NCBI RefSeq assembly: GCF_011045215.1
Contig: NZ_CP049201.1
Length of the DNA stretch: 64,000 nt
Strand: one strand, 5' to 3'
DNA from: Escherichia coli
Lineage (GTDB): Bacteria > Pseudomonadota > Gammaproteobacteria > Enterobacterales > Enterobacteriaceae
Part shown: positions 8,197-10,654 of the stretch, piece by piece
Layout: every line of letters starts with the position of its first letter
Numbering within the stretch: the first letter of the stretch is position 1
The notes under the pieces: generated by a model
Told to the model about the DNA's origin: nothing
What the model saw: the letters and a program-made list of their open reading frames with translations, nothing else
The model's database searches: none
Program-made: the position numbers and the translations under genes

Positions 8197-8204
8197 TGTG
8201 GATC
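8197..8204. repeat. Target-site duplication (TGTGGATC), left copy, flanking the IS66-family element
   Basis: Identical 8-mer at 8197-8204 and 10647-10654, immediately outside the GTAAGCGTACAGC terminal inverted repeats. Confidence 0.7.
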
Positions 8205-8241
8205 GTAAGCGTACAGCGAGGGCCGTATTGACGGGGATGTG

Positions 8242-9780
8242 TTATTCAGCTGGCAGTGCTATGCGCCACGGAAGCAGTTCGCTGACCCGGTTGACCGGCC
8301 AGTCTGCTATGACGCCAAGCACATGGCGAAGGTAGCTTTCTGGATCCACGTCATTCAGTTTGCACGTCCCGATCAGGCTGTACAGTAGCGCTCCCCGCTC
8401 ACCACCATGGTCAGAGCCGAAGAACAGGAAGTTTTTACGACCCAGACTGACCGCCCGCAGGGCATTTTCAGCGATGTTGTTGTCGATTTCCACCCAGCCA
8501 TCGTTCGCATAGTACGTCAGTGCCGGCCACTGGTTAAGTGCGTACGCGAACGCCTTCGCCAACTCTGAGTGTCGCGACAGGGTCTTCATCTTTTCACGCA
8601 ACCAGCTTTCCAGGGATTTCAACAACGGTTTCGTTTTTCGCTGACGTTCAGCAAGCCGCTGCTCTGCCGGCATTCCCCTTATATCCGCCTCTATGGCGTA
8701 CAACTGACCGATCTGCTCCAGGGCTTCTTCCGTCAGTGCTGACGGGATGCGGACGTGCACATCGTGGATCTTTCGGCGGGCATGAGCCCAGCAGGCAGCT
8801 TCCGTTATCCCACCATTGCGATACAGCTCGTTGAACCCGGCGTACGCATCCGCTTGCAGCACACCGCTGAAGCAGGCAAGATGAGTCTGCGGATGGATGC
8901 CTTTTCTGTCCGGGCTGTAAGCGAACCACACTGCAGGTGCCAACGCTGACCCGGCATTGCGGTCATCACGAACATACGCCCACAACCGCCCGGTCTTCGT
9001 CTTCTTATTACCCGGCAGCAGTACCTGGACCGGGGTATCATCGGCATGGAGTTTGCCGTCAGTCATGACATAGCCATGAAGCGCCTCTTCCAGCGGAGAC
9101 AGCAGCCGGCAGCATGCATCCACCCAGCCCGACAGCAGTGAACGCCTCAGCTCCACACCTTGCCGGCCGTATATTTCTGACTGGCGATACAGCGGGGTGT
9201 GCTCTGCATACTTCGAGGTCAGCACGCGGGCCAGCAGCCCCGGTCCGGCGATACCCCGCTCGATGGGCCGCGAAGGTGCAGGTGCCTGCACGATGGCATC
9301 GCACTGAGTACAGGTATGTTTTTCCCGTACCGTCCGGATAACCCGGAAGGCGCTACGCATCAACTCCAGCTGTTCGGCGGTATCCTCGCCCAGATAGCTC
9401 AGTGAACCGCCGCAGTTCGGGCAGCACGGCGCCGCAGGCAACAGTCGCTTTTCGTCACGGGGTAGTGATTCAGGGAACGGCTTACGGGTGCGGGTCTGAC
9501 GCAACGGACGCTGTACTGCCGGGTCATACACCCTACCAGTCAGCGTATCGCTCTCTTTCTGAAGCCGGTTCAGATCGGCTTCCATTTGTGCGATACGGCG
9601 GGAGACTTTTTCGGAACGACTGCCGAAGTTCATCCGGCGGAGTTTATCCAGCTGCGCCTGCAGATGGTCTATTTCGCGCTCCCGGTTGCTCAGCTTTTCC
9701 TGCAGGGCGTGGATCAGCGCTTCCTGTTCGGCCAGGCGCTGTTTCAGCAGGAAGATGTCGTCAGAAGAGATGTCGTTCAT
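8242..9780 (-). CDS. tnpC: IS66-family transposase TnpC
   Basis: 512 aa; N-terminal coiled-coil/leucine zipper, Cys-rich zinc-finger-like region (CCPNCGG...CTQC), DDE-type core typical of IS66 TnpC. Confidence 0.95.
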
Positions 9781-9829
9781 AAGCCCGTATTTTACCGGGC
9801 TTATTCTGTGACAACCAGGATAAAGAGAT

Positions 9830-10177
9830 TTACAGCATGGTCAGGGAGGTCAGCAGCCGCTTAGGCTGTCGCCAGTCGATACCTTCCAGCAGCATCGCCA
9901 GCTGCGCCTGCGTAAGGAACACTTTGCCATCACGGGCTGACGGCCAGGCGAAGCGCCCACGCTCCAGCCGTTTGGTCAGGAGGCACAGCCCGTCACCGGT
10001 GGACCACAGCAGTTTAACCTGACTGCCGCTGCGGCCCCGGAAAATGAAAACATGGCCGGACATGGGATCGTCTTTCAGCGCCGTCTGTACTTTCGCAGCC
10101 AGGCCGTTGAAGCCATTTCTCATATCGGTGATACCGGCAACCAGCCAAATTTTGGTCCCGGAAGGTAACGGGATCAT
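9830..10177 (-). CDS. tnpB: IS66-family TnpB (Orf2)
   Basis: 115 aa, [20 protein letters not shown]... characteristic IS66 orf2 N-terminus. Confidence 0.9.
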
Positions 10178-10575
10178 CGCTTCAGTTCCTGTATCAGCAG
10201 AGTCAGGAGCTTTTCGCTGACATTGCCATTGAAGCGGAGCGTCCCGTGCCGGAACGTTACCTCACAGCTGATACTGAGGGTTTCCGGGTCCTCTGCGAGC
10301 GATTCTGGCTGTTCGGCAGCGGCATCGAGAGTCACAGGAAGTAGCTGGGGGCTCTCTGAAGAAGGTAATAGCAGCTTTCCCTCGCGCCATTGTTGTCGCC
10401 ATTTGAACAACAGATTGGCGTTAATGCCATTTTCAAGAGCAAGTTTTGAGATGGATATCCCGGGTTCACAGGAGGCAGCAACGAGCTGCTGTTTAAATTC
10501 GGGAGGATAATTAGGGCAGCCTTTTCGCCTGCCGGGAGTCACATTTTTCTGCATATCTGATACTTTGGTTCCCAC
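10174..10575 (-). CDS. tnpA: IS66-family TnpA (Orf1, HTH)
   Basis: 133 aa, overlaps tnpB start by 4 nt; HTH region ...ISISKLALENGINANLLFKWRQQW... Confidence 0.9.
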   Translation of the reverse strand: MGTKVSDMQKNVTPGRRKGCPNYPPEFKQQLVAASCEPGISISKLALENGINANLLFKWRQQWREGKLLLPSSESPQLLPVTLDAAAEQPESLAEDPETLSISCEVTFRHGTLRFNGNVSEKLLTLLIQELKR

Positions 10576-10646
10576 TACTTATTTGGTGGACACCACTTTG
10601 TCTAATTCGTCAGATTCTGACCAGACGGTTCAGGCTGTACGCTTAC

Positions 10647-10654
10647 TGTGGATC
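10647..10654. repeat. Target-site duplication (TGTGGATC), right copy
   Basis: See left copy at 8197-8204. Confidence 0.7.

Follow-up and report, generated by a model that had tools for sequence, protein, structure and literature searches.

The region from 8205 to 10646 of the analyzed DNA is almost certainly a single copy of the insertion sequence ISEc8, which entered the sequence ...GGTCTGTTT-TGTGGATC-CTGGTTCC... by one simple transposition. No evidence contradicting this was found. The insertion is inherited within a lineage of related plasmids or islands and is not private to the strain. In the following, the window refers to the whole stretch of 64 kb that was analyzed.

Structure of the element and its ends

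The features of the element and its boundaries are:

8205..10646, genes on the minus strand: complete element of the IS66 family, 2442 bp, very likely ISEc8
8197..8204: target-site duplication, left copy, 8 bp, TGTGGATC; single copy in the empty-site alleles L001, L002 and L003
10647..10654: target-site duplication, right copy, 8 bp, TGTGGATC; abuts the element end
8205..8226: terminal inverted repeat of the tnpC-distal end, GTAAGCGTACAGCGAGGGCCGT, 22 nt, 82% complementary
10625..10646: terminal inverted repeat of the tnpA-proximal end, ACGGTTCAGGCTGTACGCTTAC, 22 nt
8242..9780, minus strand: tnpC, DDE transposase, 512 aa; Pfam PF13007, PF13005, PF03050 and PF13817; NCBIfam NF033517
9830..10177, minus strand: tnpB, IS66 accessory protein, 115 aa; PF05717 (E 1e-38), NF033819; identical to WP_000612591.1
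10174..10554, minus strand: tnpA, helix-turn-helix accessory protein, 126 aa; PF01527, NF047595; identical to WP_001171554.1

Members of the IS66 family have imperfect terminal inverted repeats beginning with 5'-GTAAGCG. The repeats found here start with GTAAGCG as well. They are imperfect over their 22 nt (18/22 complementary), and both open with GTAAGCGTACAGC, a perfect match of 13 nt. The locus is laid out as ...GGTCTGTTT TGTGGATC / GTAAGCGTACAGCGAGGGCCGT ... ACGGTTCAGGCTGTACGCTTAC / TGTGGATC CTGGTTCC..., with slashes at the element boundaries. The target-site duplication of IS66 is 8 bp in length (PMC6778807), which is the length of the TGTGGATC copies on both sides of the element.

Three ORFs fill the element, all of them on the minus strand, open and full length. 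As is typical of the IS66 family, tnpA, with its helix-turn-helix, and tnpB precede tnpC on the same strand and overlap each other. The start of tnpB and the stop of tnpA share the sequence ATGA (10174-10177), and tnpC starts 49 bp past the tnpB stop. The 126 aa of TnpA are counted from an ATG, while the ORF list runs to a GTG at 10575. TnpA scored 97.7 bits against the NCBIfam model for IS66-like TnpA (NF047595, cut-off 74) and carries the Pfam domain HTH_Tnp_1 (PF01527). TnpC was recognized as an IS66-type DDE transposase by Pfam as well as by NCBIfam: it contains the domains LZ_Tnp_IS66, zf-IS66, DDE_Tnp_IS66 and DDE_Tnp_IS66_C, of which DDE_Tnp_IS66 (PF03050) matched over profile positions 1-283 of 284 with an E-value of 2e-106, and it reached 459 bits against transpos_IS66 (NF033517, cut-off 180). 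Except for the substitution A156T (nt 9315) it equals WP_000998048.1. With three full-length ORFs and their IS66-family domains, the intactness of tnpA, tnpB and tnpC given in the preliminary description was confirmed.

The base composition of the copy is foreign relative to its flanks, with 52-62% GC within the element versus 29-39% outside. An Rfam scan of window positions 6800-11800 gave no match in or around it. A second ISEc8 copy was sought across the 64-kb window. Only the single copy is present, and the reading as a composite transposon was rejected on this ground.

Likely identity as ISEc8 and occurrence in E. coli

A megablast search of 5426 complete E. coli genomes found sequence matching the element in 4230 of them, at 23,803 places in total (median 4 per genome, maximum 46). 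In 3876 records the best place reached 99% identity or more, and the RefSeq name for such copies is ISEc8. Over all 2442 bp, 2 nt separate the window element from a copy of E. coli strain AUSMDU00014361 and 4 nt from one of the O157:H7 strain F8798 (99.8-99.9% identity). The transposases of these copies are named 'IS66-like element ISEc8 family transposase' in RefSeq. The window element is therefore very likely a member of ISEc8, a name which rests on the RefSeq annotation of near-identical copies. It is an already known and ordinary element; few insertion sequences of E. coli are commoner than ISEc8.

The ISEc8 copies of O157:H7 and many other E. coli have the length of the window copy (2442 bp), identical TnpA and TnpB and the same terminal repeats, and they bear 8-bp duplications of their own, such as GATTACGC in L006 and ATTGATAC in L007. 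Structurally the window copy is no different from them. Its TnpC has one private amino-acid change, A156T (nt 9315), and a synonymous difference in tnpA (nt 10321) is common to the window copy and the copy on E. coli C5 plasmid A.

The gene order tnpA-tnpB-tnpC, the ATGA overlap of tnpA and tnpB, the GTAAGCG-type ends and the 8-bp duplication are also shared with IS679 and IS66. Both are reportedly the family prototypes, IS679 having been characterized by Han et al. in 2001 (J Bacteriol 183:4296) and IS66 by Machida et al. in 1984, as cited in PMC6778807. They are named elements distinct from ISEc8, and their functional data carry over by homology only.

The window contains a further, distant tnpC-like ORF of the IS66 family (35863-37365, plus strand, 500 aa), the product of which shares 33% protein identity with ISEc8 TnpC. 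The corresponding ORF of C5 plasmid A carries a frameshift according to its annotation.

Empty-site alleles and the target-site duplication

Taken alone, the word TGTGGATC is unremarkable. It occurs 4 times in the 64-kb window versus 2.3 times expected, and this lack of rarity would favor regarding the two copies as native sequence or a chance match. The chance of finding it at both exact element boundaries is 4^-8, or ~1.5e-5. The preliminary description had named a native repeat in related genomes as the finding that would speak against a duplication, and this comparison was carried out. As query we used the two flanks joined with one TGTGGATC and with the element removed. Chromosomal loci of E. 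coli RM8082 (97.8% identity), C5 (95.5%) and 52F4 (95.4%) were continuous across the rebuilt junction. The empty-site alleles L001, L002 and L003, all three chromosomal, hold exactly one TGTGGATC each between the same flanks, and the occupied allele is longer than the empty one by exactly 2442 + 8 bp. Three independent loci with a single TGTGGATC and continuous flanks of 95-98% identity refute the repeat as native sequence and leave this reading practically no probability. Since each empty site holds one copy, the repeat is a true duplication made on insertion. Together with the family domains and the inverted repeats, these sites bear out what was described earlier: the IS66-family element is complete and its 8-bp duplication genuine.

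Since the sequence on either side of the element is collinear with that of the empty alleles, no later rearrangement took place at the window copy. A search of the PLSDB plasmids for an unoccupied allele gave none; the sole match was C5 plasmid A, which is occupied.

The target site

The element interrupts the following feature, which lies between an EAL gene and a papB-like gene:

7900-8204 and 10655-10900, minus strand: decayed GH2 beta-glucuronidase relic

A minus-strand frame of 76 aa over the rebuilt junction matched solved beta-glucuronidases at residues 443-504 in a structure-sequence search (E 3e-12). Pfam alone gave a weak match (E 0.034). The frame begins KNISCQVFEYAWNQ and continues DPQNRPLTFVNVML...LNRYYGWYFSGELE. 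The TGTGGATC target, which reads GATCCACA on the minus strand, overlaps its DPQ codons. The frames around the junction are broken by stops and shifts, and no annotated gene was found at this position in the empty alleles. For these reasons the target was an already dead beta-glucuronidase gene, and ISEc8 landed in non-functional DNA.

The same insertion in related replicons

The identical occupied site with its duplication was found in E. coli C5 plasmid A (NZ_CP010123.1, region 147,438-149,879), which is collinear with positions 1-32226 of the window at 99.2-99.3% identity. Insertion site, duplication and frameshifted EAL gene are all as in the window. The same locus with the duplication is also present in the draft assemblies GCA_036881245.1 and GCA_036881595.1, where the element is one base off that of the window. 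An exact look-up of the TnpC(A156T) protein returned only two contigs, from these same two assemblies, both representing this locus.

Outside a few hot spots, the backbones of the window and C5 plasmid A differ at ~0-6 positions per kb (~0.1-0.6%). Apart from one patch, the two elements differ at 3 positions over 2.3 kb, similar to the divergence of the flanks. Within the patch, 150 bp of tnpC (L004 9372-9521, corresponding to window 8771-8920), the C5 plasmid A copy has 22 substitutions that change 5 TnpC residues, whereas the window copy has the common ISEc8 sequence at 8771-8920. The patch was probably acquired by gene conversion from a diverged ISEc8-like variant; a donor was sought among the loci compared and was not found. 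The C5 plasmid A copy lacks A156T.

Because the same insertion is present in related replicons and the element has diverged about as much as its flanks, it is to be regarded as an inherited lineage marker. The description of the insertion as recent could not be upheld on these same grounds, the site being occupied in C5 plasmid A and in both draft assemblies. It counts as recent only insofar as its duplication has remained perfect.

The window as a whole is a mosaic. Positions 1-32226 are those collinear with C5 plasmid A (~99.3%). Positions 32227-64000 carry a type VI secretion cluster with ~97% identity to E. coli chromosomes and 94% to a Citrobacter plasmid. Among the collections searched, no record corresponds to the full 64 kb.

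Transposition and mobility

Judging from the IS66 family, the DDE transposase TnpC would act together with the helix-turn-helix protein TnpA and with TnpB, and these proteins would recognize the terminal inverted repeats of the GTAAGCG type. TnpC would then cut the element ends and join them to the target, itself cut with an 8-bp stagger, and repairing the resulting gaps would yield the TGTGGATC duplication. This mechanism, including the need for all three Tnp proteins, reportedly goes back to the work of Han et al. in 2001 on IS679.

The ISEc8 copy is plausibly still mobile, judged by its intact structure: the three ORFs are full length, TnpA and TnpB are of the commonest forms, and its terminal repeats do not differ from those of other copies. 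It is unlikely, against this, that the copy is a structurally intact but resident fossil which no longer transposes, for example owing to A156T or to low expression. Such a state would fit the location of A156T, which adjoins the second CxxC of the TnpC zinc finger, and the persistence of the insertion while its host replicons diverged. It would also fit the finding of the exact TnpC(A156T) in two contigs at this locus only, with no daughter site. However, the look-up detects exact sequences on called genes only, which makes missing daughter copies weak evidence. Moreover, the distant IS66-family TnpC of the window has a serine at the equivalent position, so that a hydroxyl is tolerated in at least one relative; this is weak evidence that A156T, too, may be tolerated in ISEc8.

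The neighboring EAL gene

The position of the element between a frameshifted EAL gene and a fimbrial regulator, as described earlier, was confirmed for both neighbors. In all alleles bearing the insertion (window, C5 plasmid A and L008) a run of A5 in the EAL gene is reduced to A4 at ~7739-7743, whereas the gene is intact (A5) in all three alleles without it. The frameshift removes the C-terminal segment AEGVE...QGYYF and shortens the Pfam EAL match from profile positions 18-234 to 18-199. The distance from the EAL stop to the element is 297 bp for the intact-allele frame and 326 bp for the frameshifted ORF of the window. The frameshift is an independent slip in a poly-A homopolymer, and nothing ties ISEc8 to it.

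A poly-G tract (7104-7109) lies a few bases upstream of the EAL ATG in the ribosome-binding region. Its length differs among near-identical alleles, with G6 in the window, G7 in RM8082 and L008 and G8 in C5 plasmid A, which makes it a candidate for a slipped-strand contingency tract.

The fimbrial region

On the other side of the element the following genes are found:

11292-11603: papB-like ORF (PF03333, E 6e-28)
11714-12274: fimbrial subunit gene, after the papB-like ORF
12357-12941: second fimbrial-subunit ORF, after the first subunit gene

The usher and chaperone genes that come next are known from the annotation of the collinear C5 plasmid A. There is no papI-like gene adjacent to the papB-like gene; a gene of the FaeA/PapI family is annotated ~10 kb further along in C5 plasmid A. 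Upstream of the papB-like gene two GATC sites (11145-11148 and 11247-11250) are located exactly 102 bp apart within the inverted boxes CGATCTTTTTAT and ATAAAAAGATCG. The Dam/Lrp phase switch of pap-type operons is laid out in this way. The two sites and the sequence surrounding them are intact, the element being located upstream, at 499 bp from the sites and 645 bp from the papB-like ORF.

Two further observations concern these genes. The strongest ribosome-binding site with an ATG (AAGGAG at 11327-11332, ATG at 11336) is out of the PapB-domain frame and would yield a peptide of 17 aa. A run of A7 (11342-11348), invariant in five alleles, separates the 17-aa frame from the PapB frame, and A6 would fuse both. 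In RefSeq, the upstream start assigned to the papB-like gene differs from allele to allele. This arrangement may reflect slippage or an unusual start codon. Furthermore, the fimbrial major-subunit gene (at 11987-12240) and a second stretch further along the operon, at ~18000-19000, are hot spots of divergence within sequence that is otherwise 99.5-99.9% identical. They show 27-34 differences per kb versus C5 plasmid A; versus L008, substitutions and indels are closely packed there. This is consistent with recombination or with diversifying selection on the subunits.

A possible effect on the neighboring genes

It had been proposed that the element may have altered the regulation of both neighbors. 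The element does lie within the 3.4-kb interval separating the EAL and papB-like genes, it cuts the papB-like regulatory region off from all sequence upstream, and transcription of the tnp genes would run antisense toward the EAL gene. Nevertheless, a changed expression of the phase-variable fimbrial operon, of the EAL gene or of both is improbable. On the EAL side, the element is ~300 bp past the 3' end of the gene (297 bp past the intact stop), away from its promoter, and the frameshift is a separate event. On the fimbrial side, the GATC boxes remain intact at 102 bp from each other and 499 bp off the element. What was interrupted is a dead beta-glucuronidase relic and no regulatory site. 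A promoter and terminator consensus scan of 7800-11700 gave no more matches than shuffled sequence and no promoter-like site leading out of the element. On these results the proposed effect on both neighbors was not sustained.

The narrower proposal, that the inherited ISEc8 at 0.5 kb upstream of the Pap-type Dam/Lrp switch alters the switching or expression of the plasmid-borne fimbrial operon, is likewise improbable. ISEc8 could act by separating the operon from sequences upstream or through transcription directed into the neighborhood. If it were true, the ISEc8 insertion and the EAL frameshift might together mark a regulatory re-wiring of the lineage.

Significance

The ISEc8 copy in itself is of little significance, as it behaves exactly as the description of its family predicts, and the fimbrial regulatory region is of more interest than the element. 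The locus does provide a clean worked example of an occupied versus an empty site. Its usefulness lies in tracing the lineage: a family of bovine-associated E. coli plasmids or islands that carry the fimbrial operon is tagged jointly by the occupied site, by the A4 frameshift in EAL and by TnpC A156T.
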